A stretch of DNA of 50,015 bases from Gammaproteobacteria bacterium (GTDB lineage: Bacteria > Pseudomonadota > Gammaproteobacteria > Thiohalospirales > Thiohalospiraceae), in the NCBI GenBank assembly GCA_015488495.1, contig WFNS01000294.1, positions 1-50,015 on the forward strand. Direction: 5' to 3'. The translations under genes and the position numbers were made by a program. How positions within the stretch are numbered: position 1 is the stretch's first letter; the number at the start of each line of letters is the position of its first letter. Below, piece after piece: positions 16,383-28,185 of this stretch. The notes beneath the pieces are model-generated. The model was not told the DNA's origin. It saw only the letters and a program-made list of their open reading frames with translations, and did not search any database.

Positions 16383-16626
16383 CGCTAAGAGTATAGCCCG
16401 AATATCGTACCCGGCCGCTGAAAGCGCTCTCACACCGGTCCCGCGGCCCTTGTGCGGTATTTGCTCAATCGTAAACCGCTTGGGCCGTTGGCACCATCAT
16501 CAGGGCCCCGTACCCGGATGAAATATTCGGGGTAGGTGGTTTCGAATGGGATTAGCGGAGGAAGGGGCCGGCACATATTTTGCCTTTCTTCGAGTAAGCG
16601 CATATTACAAAAGAGGATCGAAGGTC

Positions 16627-17676
16627 ATGAGCCTGCCAATATCGTCCTCATCGCCGGCGGCCATTCCGTTGACGGGACCGGAGGAGGGGAGTATCGATGA
16701 GGAAGAAGTGGTCCCGGGTGACGGGATGACAGCACAATTCCTTGAAATACTGGCCTCCGTGCTGCCCGAAACGGGAGCGGTTTCTCCCACTCCGGAAGAG
16801 GAAGGTGCTCCACTGAAAGGGTTGCCGTACGCGGATCAGGGAGGCAATATTTTGCCGGTCAAGCTTAATGCGATGCCGCCGGCTTTTCCGCTTGTATCCG
16901 GGGAGCTTGGGGAGGTGAAGCTGGGGGACAAAGTGCTCTTCGCCTCCCGTATGCCCCCGAACGGTTTGCCGACAGAGTTACCTGTCTCTTCACCGGTGGT
17001 GGTTGCCCCGAGTGGCGACGGGGCGGAGTTGTTGCCAACCAGGGGGCTCCCGCTGAATGTCGAGGCTCCTTTGTCTTCCGTCCAGGTTCAACAAGCGGTT
17101 TTGCGCCAGCTACAGTCCATTCCGGCCTCCAAGGAGGGGGGGGAACCAGGCTTCACTCTGGTTCCTGCGACCTCGGCCCCTCCTCTCCAGTCAGGAGGGA
17201 TGCCCGCCAATAACGCGTCGGCGGCTCCGCCGTCCTTCTCTCTTTCGCCTCCAATGGGTTCTCTGCAGTGGCAGAACGCGCTCGGGGAGAGGGTGGTATG
17301 GTTGGTGAAAAGAGATTTGCAGCAAGCTGAGCTAAAGCTGAACCCGCAGCATCTCGGGCCGGTGGAGGTCCGGATCGAGATTCGTAACGAGCAGGCGACC
17401 ATCGGTTTGTCTGCCCATCATGCGGTGACTCGCGATGCGCTGGAGGCGTCCATCCCCCGCTTGCGGGAGATGTTGGGAGAGGCGGGCTTGGCCCTGGCCA
17501 ATGTAGATGTCTCCCAGCAGCGCTCCGGCCAAGGGCAGCAGGAGGGGAGAGAACAGCGGGAAAGGAGGGAAGAGCTGGCGCTGTCGGGTGGAAGCGGGGG
17601 CCGGAGGCTGGATGAGCCTTCTCTCCATTCAGCAGCGGGGCGACGGGGGACGGGGCTGATTGACCTATTTGCCTGA
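16627..17676 (+). CDS. FliK-like protein (flagellar hook-length control C-terminal domain)
   Basis: Pro/Ser-rich N-terminal region. C-terminal ...[55 protein letters not shown]... resembles the Flg_hook domain. ATG at 16627 follows an AAGAGGA RBS. Confidence 0.7.
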
Positions 17677-21665: not shown

Positions 21666-21832
21666 TGTGTGCCCGGTACGTTGAGCTGGGCATCGTGTTT
21701 TTTGACCTGCCCATCTCGACAAAGGTGGATTATGTTGAGATGAGAATTGCAAACACGAGCCTTAATTGAAAAGTCTAGTCAAAACATGATGTCTAGCACA
21801 CAGTTAGGGTGAGTTGTGATATGGTTATTGGC

Positions 21833-24061
21833 ATGAGCGAGAAACATGTCGATCTGGTGGGCTATCGGGAGCGGTTGGTTTGCAACGTCGAGCAGGTGGA
21901 TGACATCTTCGAGGATTGCATGGCCGAGGCGCTGGAGATGCTCTCTCCCGAAGGCATCGATCTCTATCTGGCTGGTGCGTCCGTGGTATGTGGACTGGGC
22001 AGAGGTACCGAGTTGGTACTCATCTTTTTACAGGGTATACCCACGGTAGCGAGCATCGTTGGAGAAGATATTATCCCGGAGGTGGTGGATATGACGCGGA
22101 TGTTCTCTGCTACCGCCAATGGCAAGGCCATCAACCCCTTTCTTTCCGTTTTGCCGGCGGTGGCGCGGCGGCTGGAAGAGGCTGAATTGCTGCGGGACTA
22201 TTTTCTTCTCCTGGAGAGGATGGCAAAAGAGGCCAGTGAGGGTCTGATCCCGCTGTTGCGGGGCAGCGATTCCCTATTGGGACAGATCCCATTGGGTGGG
22301 TTGAAGAACTGGATCGAGTATGGGCTGAGGGGCTATCGGTTTCAGCCCCATCGCCTCGCCGACTATTTCAGCCTGCAAACGGCAGACAGCCAGGCAGCAT
22401 TGCAGCGGGAAAGACACGGTACGCTGTATGTGGACAACGAGCGCAAGCTGGAGCTCTGCCTGCATGCTCTCTGGGAACTGGAGGAGGAGTGTCATCCCTA
22501 TTCGCTGGCCTTCGACAGGCTGCGCAAACCTACTCCATACATCGATCGCAAAGGATTCCATCTGCCGGATGTATATGACGATCTGAACGGGGTTTCCGGC
22601 ATCGACCGTTATCGCGCACTGATTGCACACTTGGCGGCACATCGTCTGTTTACCCGTCCTTATGTGGCCGATAACTTCAGCCCTTTTCAACAACTGGCGA
22701 TCGAGGTTTTCGAGGATTCACGGGTCGAGGCACTGGCAATGCAGCGTTTCCCCGGGTTGCGTCGACTGTGGATGGCGCTGCATCCGCTTCCACAGGAAGG
22801 GGAGTGTCCCGCCGACTCGTACTCCTGTATTCGTCATGAACTGGCGATGCTTTCCCGTGCCATTCTGGATCCGGAGCACCCTTACACCGCTCCAAAATTG
22901 CTGGAATACGTTGCCCGGTTCCATGAGCGGATGGCCCGGGATCCCTATGACGAGAAGCTCGCTATCGAACTGGGCGTGGGCTATCTGGCCGCCATCCATA
23001 CCCCAGATTTTCGCAAACCCAAGGTCTGGTTCAAGGATACCGAGGTCACCTATCGGGATGACAACCGCTACATGTGGCTCTTTCTCGAAGATACCGACGA
23101 CGAGGACGACTTTCATTCCGATCATGCCGCGGCCAACCCCCGTATGGTGGACGAGAATCAGGCCCACTTTTCCCGGCACCATGCGGAGTGGGACTATCAG
23201 ACCAGCAGTTATCGCCCCGACTGGGTGACGGTGTATGAATCTTTGCCACCGAATGGAAACGCGGCGGATATCGATTGGCTGTTGAAGAAAAATGAGTTGT
23301 TGGCCAAGCGGTTGAAGAGGCTGGTTGATCTCCTCAAGCCTCAGCAGCCGATGCGGGTCAGGTACCAGGAGGATGGAGACGAACTGGATCTCGATGTTGC
23401 CATTCGGGCGATGGTGGAGTATCGGGCCGGAATCACTCCTGATACCCGCATCCACATGAGTGAAAAGCATGCGGGGCGGGACATTGCGGTTACTCTCTTG
23501 CTCGATCTTTCAGCCTCCATCAATGAGATACCCGAGGGCTGTGACAAGACGGTGCGGGAGTTGAGCCAGGAGGCGGTGGCGCTGCTGGCCTGGGCCATCG
23601 ACCAGCTGGGTGATCCCTTCGCTATCGCCGGATTTGCCTCCAACACCCGTCACGAGGTTCGTTACCTGCACTTCAAGGGTTTTTCCGAGCCGTGGAACGA
23701 GATCCCCAAGGCCCGGTTGGCGGCGATGGAAGGAGGTTACTCCACCCGTATGGGTGCGGCCATCCGCCATGCCGGACACTATCTTGGCAGACGCAAGAAC
23801 GAGAAGAAGCTGCTGCTCGTCCTGACCGATGGTGAGCCGTCCGATATCGACGTCGAGGATCCGGAATATCTGTTGCACGATACCAAAAAGGCGGTGGATG
23901 AGATCTCATCCGAGGGGGTCTTTACCCACTGCATCTCCCTGGATCCAAAGGCAGATGATTATGTCAGTTCAATCTTCGGCAAGGCCGGCTATGCGGTCAT
24001 CGACCACGTGAACAAGTTGCCGGAACAACTGCCACGGCTATTCATGTCGCTCACCAAGTAG
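21833..24061 (+). CDS. CbbO/NorD-family protein with C-terminal von Willebrand factor A domain
   Basis: About 742 aa. The C-terminal VWA domain has the MIDAS motif DLSASI and LLLVLTDGEPSDID. Length and N-terminal region resemble CbbO/NorD activase adaptor proteins. ATG at 21833 is preferred over GTG at 21809. Confidence 0.8.
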   Translation: MSEKHVDLVGYRERLVCNVEQVDDIFEDCMAEALEMLSPEGIDLYLAGASVVCGLGRGTELVLIFLQGIPTVASIVGEDIIPEVVDMTRMFSATANGKAINPFLSVLPAVARRLEEAELLRDYFLLLERMAKEASEGLIPLLRGSDSLLGQIPLGGLKNWIEYGLRGYRFQPHRLADYFSLQTADSQAALQRERHGTLYVDNERKLELCLHALWELEEECHPYSLAFDRLRKPTPYIDRKGFHLPDVYDDLNGVSGIDRYRALIAHLAAHRLFTRPYVADNFSPFQQLAIEVFEDSRVEALAMQRFPGLRRLWMALHPLPQEGECPADSYSCIRHELAMLSRAILDPEHPYTAPKLLEYVARFHERMARDPYDEKLAIELGVGYLAAIHTPDFRKPKVWFKDTEVTYRDDNRYMWLFLEDTDDEDDFHSDHAAANPRMVDENQAHFSRHHAEWDYQTSSYRPDWVTVYESLPPNGNAADIDWLLKKNELLAKRLKRLVDLLKPQQPMRVRYQEDGDELDLDVAIRAMVEYRAGITPDTRIHMSEKHAGRDIAVTLLLDLSASINEIPEGCDKTVRELSQEAVALLAWAIDQLGDPFAIAGFASNTRHEVRYLHFKGFSEPWNEIPKARLAAMEGGYSTRMGAAIRHAGHYLGRRKNEKKLLLVLTDGEPSDIDVEDPEYLLHDTKKAVDEISSEGVFTHCISLDPKADDYVSSIFGKAGYAVIDHVNKLPEQLPRLFMSLTK

Positions 24062-24078
24062 GTTTGGAGCCATGTGGC

Positions 24079-25863
24079 TTATCTCCTGGCCCAGCTCCAG
24101 GAAGACCACCAGCTCCAAATGGACCACCACCTGGGACCTTCGGCACGTCGGCAGGTGACGTTGGTCGTGGCAGTGCCGAATATCGAATTCAGCCGAACCG
24201 GATTTTCGATGCCCCCGACGCAGCTGGCGACAATCTTCCGGTCGCTCCAGGATTCAATGGAGCACCTTTCTCCGTTGCTCGACAAGAGGGTTCCCGAGTC
24301 TTCTGCATCGAGATAGCTGCCAAATCCTGATCCCCAGAGAGTGAGGTGCTCCCCTTCGCATCGAATATCGTCGATGGCAACCTCCGGTTTAATCAAAAAA
24401 TGGATGCTGGTGCTGTTCAGCTCCTTGCCGGATGGATCCCCTTTCGTTATCGTCAGATTGTAGTTTCCGGCGCTCAGATTGGCCGGAATCGTGACCTCCA
24501 TGTGAGTAGATGAAACACTATCCGGATGGATGTCGATCGTGGTACCGTCGTTTCGGGTCAAGCGTAGCCAAGTGCGCTCCTGATTTCCGCTTGTATGGGA
24601 TGACGATAAGGTGTTTACAAAGCCTGAACCTATGATCTGTAGGGTACTTGCAAGACCTGCGGTGACGACCGTTCTGCTGATCTCGCTGATCTCCGGAATA
24701 AGGGTGATATTGTCGAACCGACTGTCTATACTGGCAGAGACCATCTCATCTCGTGAGTTTTTGTGGCAGCCGTCACAGTTCTTCCGGTTGCCGATATGAC
24801 CAAAGAATGGCAGCTCCTCTCCGGCCACTACTCCATCCCCGATTGCATCGTATTCGATGCTGTGCAGTGAAGTTATGCCGTGGCATCGTTCACATCCGCG
24901 GATGGTGAAATCCGGAGGGGCAGAGGGTTGATGGCAGAGGGTGCAACCATGTACCGATCCGCTCCCAGGTTGTCCCACGCCTGTGCCGTGGTGGTTGGCG
25001 TAGTTGATGTTGATGCGTTGTCCGGTAACGTCGTCGATACCGGCAAAATGGCAATAGGTGCAATTGCCCATCGGCCGCCCTGTCTCACCAATGGGCGGGT
25101 TGAAATTTTCCATGATGTATTCGATTTGGGCTTCGGCCTCTTCTTTTCTCCTGAGATCCTCCTCGGTCGGGTTTGGGGGTAGTTCGAGTTTGTAGGCGAA
25201 GGCCGCTTTCAGTGCGCCGCGTAGCTGAACGCGGCTGTCGTAGAATCCGATACCTGGCCATGGCGTGGTTAAGGAAATGTCGTAGTGATTTTCCGGGTCA
25301 TCCGGGTGATTAGCCGGGTCCGGGATGCGGTGGTCCCCATTGGGGTCGTCGATCAGGCTGCCATGACATATATGGCAGTTGGCTTGCTGTGCCCGCTCGG
25401 TCAGGTGATGCACCGTGGCGATTAGTTCGCCCTGCCGGTTTTTTTTCTGGGTATGGCAATTGAGGCAGTCCCGAAAGACAGGGTCACTCGGATCCTGAGC
25501 AAAGCGGAAGAATCCGCCGGAAGGTCTCGACGGGTCTTCCACCCAGTCAATGGCGTGACAAGTTACGCACTTGTGTTCCCCATCGGGTGACTTCTCAGGA
25601 AAGGGTGATGCAGAATATGCCCCAATCGGAGTGTCAATTCTGAGATGATGTCGATCTGGGAGGTAGCCCGATTTCAAAGGGGCCGAGGTGCTCTCCGGTG
25701 CGCCGTGACAGCCGAGGCAGGTGACGAAGGTCATCTCCGCGAACCGTGTATCGGGAATACCAAGATATTGGTTCACGGGAGGTGGTGGAACGCTGGCCCA
25801 AACGGCGCCAGCAGCTAGAGCAGCCATCACCAGTAATATATTGCGCAGTGCGTCCCCTGCCAT
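24079..25863 (-). CDS. Secreted octaheme c-type cytochrome with two IPT/TIG-like repeats and a Trp-rich C-terminal tail (paralog 1)
   Basis: 594 aa. Signal peptide ...AAGAVWA|SVPPPP. Eight CxxCH motifs (CLGCH, CVTCH, CLNCH, CHICH, CTYCH, CTLCH, CERCH, CDGCH). C-terminal repeats carry GSGF motifs. Ends GPRWWSIWSWWSSWSWARR*. Confidence 0.9.
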   Translation of the reverse strand: MAGDALRNILLVMAALAAGAVWASVPPPPVNQYLGIPDTRFAEMTFVTCLGCHGAPESTSAPLKSGYLPDRHHLRIDTPIGAYSASPFPEKSPDGEHKCVTCHAIDWVEDPSRPSGGFFRFAQDPSDPVFRDCLNCHTQKKNRQGELIATVHHLTERAQQANCHICHGSLIDDPNGDHRIPDPANHPDDPENHYDISLTTPWPGIGFYDSRVQLRGALKAAFAYKLELPPNPTEEDLRRKEEAEAQIEYIMENFNPPIGETGRPMGNCTYCHFAGIDDVTGQRININYANHHGTGVGQPGSGSVHGCTLCHQPSAPPDFTIRGCERCHGITSLHSIEYDAIGDGVVAGEELPFFGHIGNRKNCDGCHKNSRDEMVSASIDSRFDNITLIPEISEISRTVVTAGLASTLQIIGSGFVNTLSSSHTSGNQERTWLRLTRNDGTTIDIHPDSVSSTHMEVTIPANLSAGNYNLTITKGDPSGKELNSTSIHFLIKPEVAIDDIRCEGEHLTLWGSGFGSYLDAEDSGTLLSSNGERCSIESWSDRKIVASCVGGIENPVRLNSIFGTATTNVTCRRAEGPRWWSIWSWWSSWSWARR

Positions 25864-26331: not shown

Positions 26332-28185
26332 CTAACGGCGTGCCCAGCTCCAGGAGGACCACCAGCTCCAGATGGACCACCATTTCGGCCGACCCGCACT
26401 GTCGGTACCCCCACAGGCGGCACTGGATGAGGCCTCTCCGAAGAGTCCATCGACGGTGACACTGCCGGTGCCGGAGCCACAGTTGGCGACGATCTGGGTG
26501 TCGGACCAGGACTCGACTGAGCAGCTGCCCTCATCGGAGGCCACGCCGAGACCACCACCACCCACAAAGGTGTCACCGAATCCGCTGCCGGTGATGGTGA
26601 CCTTGCCACCACTGCAGCTCACATCTTCAATGTTGACTCCAGGAGCCACCAGGAAGCTCATAGCAGGACTGCGTTTCGCAAACTCGCCACGCCCCCTGAC
26701 CACGTAGAGCTCATAGTTATCGGCGGGCAGGTCTGCCGGGATCACCGCCTTGGCGCTGGTGTAGTCGTATTCCGTCATCGGAATCTCATGCACCTGGCCA
26801 TCGGTCCCTACCAGCTCAAGCCGTGTGCTGGGGCCGTTGAAGCTAGAGCCAGTGATGGTGATCTCCTGTGCCTTACCTGCAACGCTACCCAAAGCGCTGA
26901 TGTCGGAGACACTGGGCGGAACGCCGCCAAGTTCGACACTGCCGTTCAGATAGCTGGCGCTGGCCTGGTAGACCTGTCCGGTTCTGTAGTTGAGGTGACA
27001 GCCCCGACAGTTGAGATCGTTGCCGATGTGGCCCATGAATGGCTTCTCTTCAAAGGGAACGATGCCGTCACCCTCTGCGTCATACTCGATGGCGTGCACG
27101 GTACTGATGGCGTGACACACTTCGCAGCCCCGAATGGTGAAGTTCGGCGGATTCTCGGGCGCGTGGCAGAGATCACACCCATGCACCGAGCCACTGCCCG
27201 GCTGGCCGACACCAGTGGAGTGGTGGTTGGACATGTTGGTGCCAATGTCGTTCTTGGCAAGTCCGGTCCCGGGCTGCACTGCGTCCCCCGGGTTCTCCCC
27301 GGCATAGTGACAGTGCTCGCAGTTACCGGTGCGGCGTCCACCTTGCTCCCCATCGGGTACCAGGATGGCCTGGATATTGCCCGCGGCATCTGTCTCATAC
27401 CGATAGCGCGGCGGGTCGATGACGAACTGCCCTCCCAGCTCATTGGGATCATAGTAGCGCTTGGCAAAATCGGGGCAGTCGGCATAGATTGCCTGCAGCA
27501 TGGAGACCCAGTTGCCTTCGTCGTAGTTGTCTCCAGGCCATGGAGTGATGAGGGAGATATCGTAGAAGTTCCGATCCCCATCCGGCATCACCTCGCCACA
27601 GTGGCGGGCCTTATCAGGATCTGGCGCAGTACCCTGATCGGGAACACGATGGTCATCAGTAGCATTGTTGACCAGGCTACCGTGACATTGATAGCACAGT
27701 TTCTTCTGCGCCTTATCAGTCAGATGGTGCACTGTGGCCGTAAGGTTACCATCGGCATCCTTCTTCTGCTTGTGGCAGTTCAGGCAGTCACGGAACTGAG
27801 GATCCGTCGGCTCCAGCGCGAACTTGAAGTATTGCCCGCCGGGACGATTGGGGTCCTCAAATACGTCGATCGCATGACAGGTGGCACATTTGTGGGTGCC
27901 ATCAGGAGATTTATCCGGGAAGGGAGAGGCGGAGTAGTCCGGATCGATCGGCGTATCGACGCGCAAATGATGCCGGTCAGGCAGATAGCCTATCTTTACT
28001 GGCGCCGGTGCATTCTTGGGATCACCGTGGCAACCCAGACAGGTTTGATATGTCATATCCGCAAAACGCCCATCCGGTATACCCAGATTCTGGTTTACCG
28101 GCGGGGGTGGTAATTTCGCCCAAGCCCCGCCGGCCATCACAATGGCCGCCGTGACCAGGGCTCCTTTCAACAGTTTCCTGAACAT
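26332..28185 (-). CDS. Secreted octaheme c-type cytochrome with two IPT/TIG-like repeats and a Trp-rich C-terminal tail (paralog 2)
   Basis: 617 aa from MFRKLLKGALVTAAIVMAGGAWA|KLPPPP (ATG at 28185; the longer ORF-track start is not supported). Eight CxxCH motifs (CLGCH, CATCH, CLNCH, CYQCH, CEHCH, CDLCH, CEVCH, CRGCH). Ends RPKWWSIWSWWSSWSWARR*. Confidence 0.9.
   Translation of the reverse strand: MFRKLLKGALVTAAIVMAGGAWAKLPPPPVNQNLGIPDGRFADMTYQTCLGCHGDPKNAPAPVKIGYLPDRHHLRVDTPIDPDYSASPFPDKSPDGTHKCATCHAIDVFEDPNRPGGQYFKFALEPTDPQFRDCLNCHKQKKDADGNLTATVHHLTDKAQKKLCYQCHGSLVNNATDDHRVPDQGTAPDPDKARHCGEVMPDGDRNFYDISLITPWPGDNYDEGNWVSMLQAIYADCPDFAKRYYDPNELGGQFVIDPPRYRYETDAAGNIQAILVPDGEQGGRRTGNCEHCHYAGENPGDAVQPGTGLAKNDIGTNMSNHHSTGVGQPGSGSVHGCDLCHAPENPPNFTIRGCEVCHAISTVHAIEYDAEGDGIVPFEEKPFMGHIGNDLNCRGCHLNYRTGQVYQASASYLNGSVELGGVPPSVSDISALGSVAGKAQEITITGSSFNGPSTRLELVGTDGQVHEIPMTEYDYTSAKAVIPADLPADNYELYVVRGRGEFAKRSPAMSFLVAPGVNIEDVSCSGGKVTITGSGFGDTFVGGGGLGVASDEGSCSVESWSDTQIVANCGSGTGSVTVDGLFGEASSSAACGGTDSAGRPKWWSIWSWWSSWSWARR

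Follow-up and report, generated by a model that had tools for sequence, protein, structure and literature searches.

A Trp-rich C-terminal tail shared by OmcZ-like cytochrome precursors and otherwise dissimilar proteins in Gammaproteobacteria

Two octaheme cytochrome genes in a stretch of 50,015 nucleotides from a member of the Gammaproteobacteria (assembly GCA_015488495.1, contig WFNS01000294.1, positions 1 to 50,015; this whole stretch is called the window hereafter) were found to end in one and the same Trp-rich peptide, which is the subject of the present study. This tail is real, strongly selected, portable and undescribed, and is best classed with the C-terminal tails that sort or anchor proteins. 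Judged from its sequence, and with a confidence somewhat below even, we regard it as a portable, lineage-restricted localization module of about 20 residues, most likely an anchor at a membrane interface. Short C-terminal tails set the final location of bacterial surface proteins, and to our knowledge every new class of them has so far led to a new processing enzyme. The tail described here resembles sorting signals in conservation, portability and copy number, yet it lacks a membrane-spanning middle, which implies that the rule or the mechanism differs here.

Both genes lie on the minus strand (paralog 1, 24079..25863; paralog 2, 26332..28182), and translation confirmed the initial annotation, which had placed the same 16 residues, WWSIWSWWSSWSWARR, directly before both stop codons; the proteins end in ...EGPRWWSIWSWWSSWSWARR and ...GRPKWWSIWSWWSSWSWARR, respectively. 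The tail comprises residues 579-594 of paralog 1 (24082..24129) and positions 26335..26382 in paralog 2; the 60-nucleotide spans previously given for it are made up of the stop codon, the 16 tail codons and three preceding junction codons. The tail has a core of 13 residues (7 Trp, 5 Ser, 1 Ile) between the opening motif and the terminal x-R-R. This motif is G-R-P-K in paralog 2 (26383..26394), whereas the junction RRAEGPR of paralog 1 (24130..24150) has the variant E-G-P-R in place of the G-R-P-x signature. Five of the nine non-Trp tail codons differ synonymously between the paralogs, in exactly the pairs noted before (ATT/ATC, TCT/TCC, GCC/GCA, AGG/CGC, AGA/CGT), and the stop codons are unlike as well (TAA/TAG). 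In the 13 codons upstream of the tail all 13 differ and the amino acids agree at only two positions; overall the paralogs are 46% identical.

A search with paralog 1 listed 120 homologs, of which 70, with about 38-99% identity, bear the tail. Among the matches listed it is carried by 70/70 homologs in this range, and the more distant ones (P0071 onward, up to P0120) are without it. The consensus of the 70 tails reads G-R-P-x-W-W-x-[IL]-W-S-W-[WF]-x-S-W-[SG]-W-x-[RG]-R-stop, with column counts of G55 R61 P69 x W70 W70 [S44/A11] [I51/L16] W70 S61 W70 in the first half and [W53/F17] [S42/A20] S61 W70 [S49/G20] W70 [S49/A16] [R44/G20] R70, then stop, in the second. Six Trp positions and the last Arg are invariant in 70/70 tails, and the start motif (G 55/70, R 61/70, P 69/70, then W-W 70/70) is nearly so. 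The terminal basic cluster seen in the window genes holds for the 46 of 70 tails that end in two basic residues (RR 44, KR 2) and fails for the other 24, which have a single Arg (GR 20, QR 2, IR 1, LR 1); the flanks of the GRPD/GR subtype, which contains Asp, have only a small net charge. Mean pairwise identity among the 70 proteins is 0.76 in the tail, 0.63 in the heme domain, 0.44 and 0.33 in the second and first TIG domain (TIG2, TIG1) and 0.20 in the linker. The tail is thus the best-conserved region of the protein, and the low conservation earlier ascribed to the adjacent beta-sandwich region holds (TIG1 33% and TIG2 44% versus 76% for the tail and 63% for the heme domain).

On the nucleotide level 41 different versions of the tail were collected, which translate into 32 peptides, with Gly, Arg, Pro and most Ser positions in several synonymous codons. 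This variety implies that selection acts on the peptide and, with the presence of the tail in 70/70 homologs, bears out purifying selection rather than local gene conversion, as had been proposed from the two window genes. The Ser codons are position-specific: at -11 and -5 they are AGY almost exclusively, at -14, -8 and -7 TCN, and at -3 TCN except in one tail, a pattern which indicates that all tails, on whichever protein family, descend from a common ancestor. On the other strand, the CCA-rich antisense of the tail yields a shadow open reading frame (ORF; ...LAQLQEDHQLQMDHH... / PAPGRPPAPNGPP) in the window (24064-24330, plus strand) and at equivalent positions in 14 loci; it clusters across loci as a by-product of the conserved TGG codons and was rejected as a gene.

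The search for the tail beyond the window, which the initial annotation had recommended, extended it to three further types of protein. A profile of the last 30 residues, run as a clearly insensitive search, gave eight matches among 1.84 billion representatives. With a 42-residue alignment of tails (A2), 125 candidates shared words with the tail but none of them scored, probably owing to the composition filters of HMMER. An in-frame search of DNA with the strict pattern P-x-WW-x-[NTN]-W-x-W-[W/F]-xx-W-x-W-xx-R-stop gave 35 matches in 27 metagenome loci and none in viral contigs. Twenty-eight of these 35 matches are OmcZ-like (most with 8-9 CXXCH motifs, contig-end fragments with fewer or none), three belong to proteins of the Lcl_C+TIG type (two in tandem on L125; the one on L150 scores as Lcl_C by Pfam) and one to a DUF6973 protein (L129); those on L134, L135 and L137 are W/R-rich simple sequence and were discarded. 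A scan of genome contigs with TGGTGGNNNNNNTGGNNNTGGTKS... met mostly simple Trp-codon repeats, the only true tail among the matches listed being that of L040, from a metagenome-assembled genome (MAG) of the Chromatiales. Tailed Lcl_C+TIG proteins comprise P0122 (323 amino acids; PF07603, one TIG domain and the tail), two proteins each on L124 and L125, and the one on L150. A polysaccharide lyase of 330 amino acids (P0124 on L123; PF14099) bears the tail after a short linker without a TIG domain and lies in a glycosyltransferase cluster, next to a tandem paralog without the tail. DUF6973 carriers are P0175-P0177, two of which came from a homolog search (69-72% identity; variant tails ARPRFWTLWSWWASWSWARR and GRLKWWEIWSWWSSWPWSRR). 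Between the OmcZ-like cytochromes, the lyase and the DUF6973 proteins there is no similarity beyond the tail, and the Lcl_C proteins share TIG domain and tail. With these four families, the only ones found, the tail is a portable C-terminal module on protein families with nothing else in common.

Cytochrome P0032 and lyase P0124 come from one assembly (GCA_021648145.1) and both have the subtype 'GRPDWW.LW.WFASWGW.GR', and the Lcl_C proteins and cytochromes P0028 and P0030 have the same 'EGCKSSGRPKWWE.WSWWS.WSW.RR' junction. As far as these sequences tell, tail subtype depends on the genome rather than on the protein family; this would be expected of tails that all address a single partner within the cell, be it membrane or protein. 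Two copies occur in the window, six on L122 and four on L151, and GCA_021648145.1 has three omcZ-like genes on L153 (tails confirmed in P0032 and, through identical matches, on the syntenic contig L140/L154) besides the lyase on L123. Counts per genome and taxonomic range are rough: the contigs with carriers belong to a small number of metagenomes and MAGs labeled Gammaproteobacteria or Chromatiales, among them a hydrothermal vent metagenome, and rarity of the tail is only partly established. In both window genes, in 70/70 homologs and in every true DNA match the final Arg is the last residue before the stop codon. The one exception is P0123 (193 amino acids, from the representative library), which reads past the stop position after ...WSWARR into sequence resembling the antisense of the neighboring VWA gene; an artifact of sequencing or gene calling is the probable cause, and not an internal tail.

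The carriers in the window had been described as octaheme cytochromes. Their eight CXXCH motifs were confirmed and are invariant in an alignment of 96 sequences (A3), but their homology to OmcZ had gone unrecognized, and it alters the biological reading. In phmmer searches of the PDB, full-length Geobacter OmcZ (8d9m_A, 473 amino acids) matched with E=6e-39 in two segments, which together span the heme domain and both C-terminal Ig domains, and mature OmcZs (7lq5_A) matched with E=4e-20; the TIG region aligned to OmcZ residues 177-443, and the mature N-terminus VPPPPVNQ is common to the window cytochromes and OmcZ. Pfam matches comprised MtrC/MtrF-type and c7-type heme regions and IPT/TIG domains, and the TIG region of paralog 1 passed the NCBIfam CoaZ repeat model (31.4 bits, cutoff 30). 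The AlphaFold2 model computed with alignment A3 had a mean predicted local distance difference test score (pLDDT) of 77.8 and showed two beta-sandwiches at residues 390-571 (pLDDT 80-96), for which Foldseek gave tandem IPT/Ig domains as best PDB matches. OmcZ membership rests on sequence, because Foldseek recovered the Ig domains and not the OmcZ heme fold. By homology, then, the two window genes are precursors of the OmcZ family.

Paralog 1 (594 amino acids; stop codon 24079-24081) starts with a signal peptide of 23 residues (25795..25863; MAGDALRNILLVMAALAAGAVWA|SVPPPP), modeled as a helix at residues 2-19 and cleaved where mature OmcZ (7lq5) starts in the alignment. It is followed by the heme domain with eight CXXCH (residues 24-370; 24754..25794), a variable linker (residues 371-389; 24697..24753) that aligns with the OzpA cleavage region of OmcZ (FGNSS), and the two IPT/TIG domains (residues 390-571; 24151..24696). 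For paralog 2 (616 amino acids; stop codon 26332-26334) the mechanical listing begins at a TTG (28479). The stretch of about 99 codons between this TTG and an ATG at 28182 has no homology support, and the ATG is the likely start, since from there the protein (MFRKLLKG..., a signal peptide) aligns with paralog 1 and OmcZ. In Geobacter the subtilisin OzpA cleaves the 50-kDa precursor of OmcZ directly behind the last heme motif, which removes the Ig domains and leaves the 30-kDa OmcZ, the form that polymerizes (PMC9473688); by analogy, paralog 1 would be cleaved within the linker. OmcZ-like genes also occur in tandem arrays, all tailed, with six on L122 (2775-15901), four on L151 and others on L140/L154 and L153. 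For a nanowire-type cytochrome such an array is an unusually large expansion.

From these observations the following course may be proposed. The tail would consist of G-R-P-x, the 13-residue Trp/Ser core and x-[R/G]-R-stop, its Trp-rich core would lodge among the lipid head groups of the membrane without spanning the bilayer, and exported proteins would thereby be held at the cell envelope. In the window genes the tail would close a C-terminal pro-region (two TIG domains and tail) of OmcZ-like precursors. As in Geobacter OmcZ, an OzpA-type subtilisin may then cut the linker after the last heme motif, so that the heme domain would be freed for filament assembly and TIG domains and tail would stay at the envelope. 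Membrane binding, the membrane concerned, proteolytic release and filament formation are the parts of this course that we infer.

An interfacial position is favored over a transmembrane one by the physical properties of the 13-residue core. Its Wimley-White interfacial sum of about -12.6 kcal/mol is roughly double the value for the membrane-proximal external region (MPER) of gp41 on the same scale, whereas the Hessa translocon sum is +5.7 kcal/mol and the Kyte-Doolittle mean -0.45 (all approximate). The hydrophobic stretch that the initial annotation had compared with known C-terminal sorting signals is accordingly not transmembrane-like. HIV-1 gp41 MPER peptides were also the only PDB look-alikes of a tail variant (DKWASLWNWF versus PDWWSLWNWF), a compositional analogy without significant homology (E 6.6-9.5, about 10 bits). 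A role in localization is consistent with the alternative C-terminal endings of distant homologs ('choice of anchor'), since P0078, P0083, P0084, P0097 and P0106 have a classical hydrophobic helix and RRR at the tail position, which match no named CTERM model.

Several points weigh against the anchor. The hydrophobic moment of the tail has its maximum at 120 degrees, whereas an alpha-helix would place it at 100, as the tail is built of a period-3 repeat, (x-W-S)x4 or equivalently WWSIWS/WWSSWS. The undocked helix that AlphaFold2 draws for the tail (residues 578-592) counts for an anchor, but its confidence is low (pLDDT about 48-60). The near-total invariance of its residues exceeds what a generic lipid anchor needs and hints at a specific protein partner. 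Finally, neither an S8 protease nor a peptidyl-prolyl isomerase (PPIase) was found in the 50-kb window by tblastn, so that release is deduced from relatives only and the maturation machinery, if any, is located elsewhere in the genome, where an OzpA-like protease could lie.

The hint at a protein partner leads to the question whether the tail is a processed sorting signal. No CTERM model of NCBIfam (release 20.0) matched the full proteins at E<=1 or the isolated tails at E<=10, and Pfam had nothing for the tail. In the literature no description was found of a Trp-rich C-terminal signal, of OmcZ in Gammaproteobacteria or of DUF6973 relevant to the tail. It is thus undescribed in curated libraries and literature, and the original impression that it matches no recognized CTERM signal was correct. 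The attributes listed by Haft for tripartite C-terminal sorting signals include C-terminal location, a middle helix that is hydrophobic and of transmembrane length, two to five basic end residues, a signal peptide on most carriers, pairs of carriers that are otherwise dissimilar, and homologs without the signal or with another one (10.1101/2023.06.07.544157). The tail has the C-terminal location, several copies per genome, a near-invariant start motif, carriers dissimilar outside it, homologs without it or with another tail and, for the most part, signal peptides on its carriers. Lacking is the hydrophobic helix of transmembrane length, for which the 13 Trp/Ser residues of the core are too few and too polar.

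A tail that is removed by a dedicated enzyme, which would read the G-R-P/WW motif and attach or release the protein, is the main rival explanation and in our opinion less probable than an anchor that persists. Exosortase, rhombosortase and myxosortase systems act in this way: they remove the tail and attach or release the protein. Haft attributes 1, 2, 3, 7 and 8 are found in the tail, its invariance at residue level suggests recognition by a protein, and its subtype co-varies with the genome. However, the missing transmembrane helix speaks against such processing, as do the single terminal Arg in 20/70 tails ('GR'), the roughly symmetric flanking charges and the outcome of the enzyme search. 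By Pfam, NCBIfam and all-versus-all clustering, no exosortase, rhomboid, CPBP-type or sortase-like gene was found in the window and about 30 related neighborhoods (about 300 kb), and the only genes recurring across these loci were the S8 protease, the SurA-like PPIase and a small cytochrome. The idea of a portable sorting or anchor signal therefore stands as regards C-terminal position, multiple copies, unrelated carriers and lack of a CTERM match, and does not stand as regards a transmembrane core and an enzyme.

The only lead to a membrane enzyme as partner of the tail is a YdjM-like integral-membrane protein, a putative hydrolase. Its gene is the second one downstream of the gene for the tailed DUF6973 protein on each of two independent contigs (L129 and L155) and is absent from all other loci examined, which counts against a processing role. 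In both contigs the same trio occurs (L129:87-1660; L155:8001-9609), consisting of the tailed DUF6973 gene, a gene for a 150-amino-acid protein with signal peptide and the YdjM-like gene (PF04307). Signal peptides are visible in the tailed cytochromes, the Lcl_C proteins and the lyase, and the DUF6973 gene calls have none. On L155, however, the DUF6973 frame stays open for 82 further codons upstream, which include a signal-peptide-like segment (...LLICLSAYLLSIGQARA|HH...), and a GGAGG-ATG start lies just upstream of this extension in another frame. Between this ribosome-binding site with its ATG and the in-frame extension an 8-nucleotide unit, TTATCTGC, is repeated three times (L155:7751-7815), which suggests that a frameshift, an assembly error or phase variation hides a signal peptide. 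A cytoplasmic tail-anchor, argued from the signal-less DUF6973 calls, was dropped for this possible frameshifted signal peptide.

Maturation genes known from Geobacter accompany part of the tailed cytochromes. A Geobacter-type locus (L152) has the order omcZ / Peptidase_S8 / SurA-like PPIase, and an S8 protease and a SurA-like PPIase also flank tail-bearing homologs in L121/L141 and L128; a partial S8 gene lies at the edge of L133 near a tail-bearing homolog. The PPIase occurs in at least six distinct loci (L121/L141, L122, L128, L140/L154, L151, L153) and is the most recurrent real neighbor, which could mean that the tail is a chaperone or export tag, whose WSW and WxW would recruit this PPIase or a step of outer-membrane translocation, prevent early polymerization of the precursor and guide it outward. 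SurA prefers Ar-x-Ar peptides. We consider such a tag improbable, since the same PPIase adjoins the tail-less OmcZ of L152, the lyase and DUF6973 carriers have no PPIase neighbor, and the tail ends in Arg and not in the aromatic residue of the beta-signal of outer-membrane proteins.

Slightly less probable still is that the tail binds the matrix or itself, its Trp and Ser faces stacking on exopolysaccharide and glycans or zipping together to hold proteins in the biofilm matrix. OmcZ-like cytochromes, adhesin-like Lcl_C proteins and a polysaccharide lyase are carriers of a kind typical for a matrix or cell surface, and the period-3 xWS pattern gives one face of four Trp, one of four Ser and a third on which Trp, Ile and Ser are mixed, but 13 residues are too few for any known carbohydrate-binding fold. 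Electron hopping along Trp or stacking on heme, offered in the initial annotation as an extension of the multiheme chain, is very unlikely: beyond Trp content and attachment to cytochromes nothing speaks for it, and the same tail ends lyase, Lcl_C and DUF6973 proteins, all non-redox and without a heme motif, lies two Ig domains away from the heme domain, and belongs to a region that is removed from OmcZ before the filament forms (PMC9473688). The least credible explanation, a local artifact of recent gene conversion between the paralogs or of constraint on the DNA, could appeal to the central 39 nucleotides of the tail, which differ at only two positions (though 21 of them are fixed TGG codons), and is refuted by the occurrence of the tail in 70/70 homologs from many samples, by 41 DNA versions with extensive synonymous change and by its presence on unrelated genes.

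Beyond the membrane-interface anchor, a bolder thought may be voiced, which we hold possible rather than probable: the tail may represent a new class of targeting signal, built on a period-3 Trp/Ser repeat in place of a transmembrane helix, by which dedicated machinery places a small envelope and extracellular regulon. In vent-type Gammaproteobacteria this regulon would contain multiple OmcZ-like nanowire precursors, with the YdjM-like hydrolase as a possible partner. In any case the tail marks a large, previously unremarked expansion of OmcZ-like nanowire cytochromes, with two to six paralogs per locus in uncultured Gammaproteobacteria; several of the carrier contigs stem from the metagenome of a hydrothermal vent. 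If it tethers or sorts the precursors by their pro-region, the tail would offer a testable handle on how OmcZ is held, exported and released for filament assembly, and it may serve as a tag in the engineering of cytochrome nanowires.

The two genes are surrounded by housekeeping genes: rho, DUF3135, a VWA protein, an S4-domain (Hsp15-like) protein, purH-type AICARFT/IMPCHase, dus and cytochrome c assembly. The gene for the cytochrome c assembly protein (PF01578; 34614-35426, minus strand) and paralog 2 are about 6 kb apart, and upstream of rho lies a gene for a FliK-like hook-length protein (16546-17676, plus strand); both are ordinary context. The VWA gene (21809-24061, plus strand) encodes 750 amino acids with a C-terminal VWA domain, had no NCBIfam match and is convergent with paralog 1, with 17 nucleotides between the stop codons; its pairing with a tailed cytochrome is kept in L149 and L131. 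In many related loci a small cytochrome-like protein (about 165-230 amino acids; 74-92% identity between loci) is encoded directly upstream of one omcZ-like gene (L121:9234-9935; L122:11965-12537; L153:9447-10001; L154:4066-4653; also L128, L140 and L151). It ends in a Gly/Met-rich run, e.g. (GGGM)n, finishing in ...GGC or ...GCG, and is absent from the window. Near a tailed cytochrome on L121 (6080-8425, minus strand) lies a gene for a Calx-beta / choice-of-anchor Q protein, the end of which, GGGGGGSLDLLLLFLLLGGLLVVRRPRGESC, is GlyGly-CTERM-like (weak SVAGG-family match), so that the organism seems to have a conventional sorting system besides the Trp tail.

Among known systems, the carriers have clear homologs in the OmcZ/OzpA nanowire system of Geobacter sulfurreducens (PDB 7lq5, 8d9m), with which they share the VPPPPVNQ N-terminus, eight CXXCH and two C-terminal Ig/TIG domains, and the order of omcZ, S8 protease and SurA-like PPIase is kept in some relatives. 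However, Geobacter-type OmcZ (P0113) ends in ...MTAASKKQF without a Trp tail, no protease or PPIase is adjacent to the window genes, and the gammaproteobacterial loci have 2 to 6 tandem paralogs. Choice-of-anchor domains (CoaZ_rpt_PGGG etc.) are comparable in so far as the TIG region of paralog 1 passes the CoaZ model and the homolog family has alternative C-terminal endings, whereas that concept refers to the preceding domain and not to the tail, and the hydrophobic endings of the distant homologs match no named CTERM model.

Tripartite signals (LPXTG, PEP-CTERM, GlyGly-CTERM, MYXO-CTERM) differ from the tail by its middle of 13 Trp/Ser residues, its basic cluster of sometimes one Arg and the lack of a CTERM model match; alike are the position at the extreme C-terminus, a start motif (G-R-P-x-W-W), the terminal Arg, multiple copies, unrelated carriers, homologs without it or with another tail, and signal peptides on most carriers. 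Trp-rich interfacial peptides such as gp41 MPER, indolicidin and those of the tritrpticin type are no homologs of the tail; MPER precedes a transmembrane helix and the antimicrobial peptides are free, whereas the tail is the C-terminus of large bacterial proteins. With them it has in common a very high Trp density, short length, a terminal Arg and a strong predicted interfacial partitioning, and one tail subtype even shares SLWNWF with gp41 MPER.

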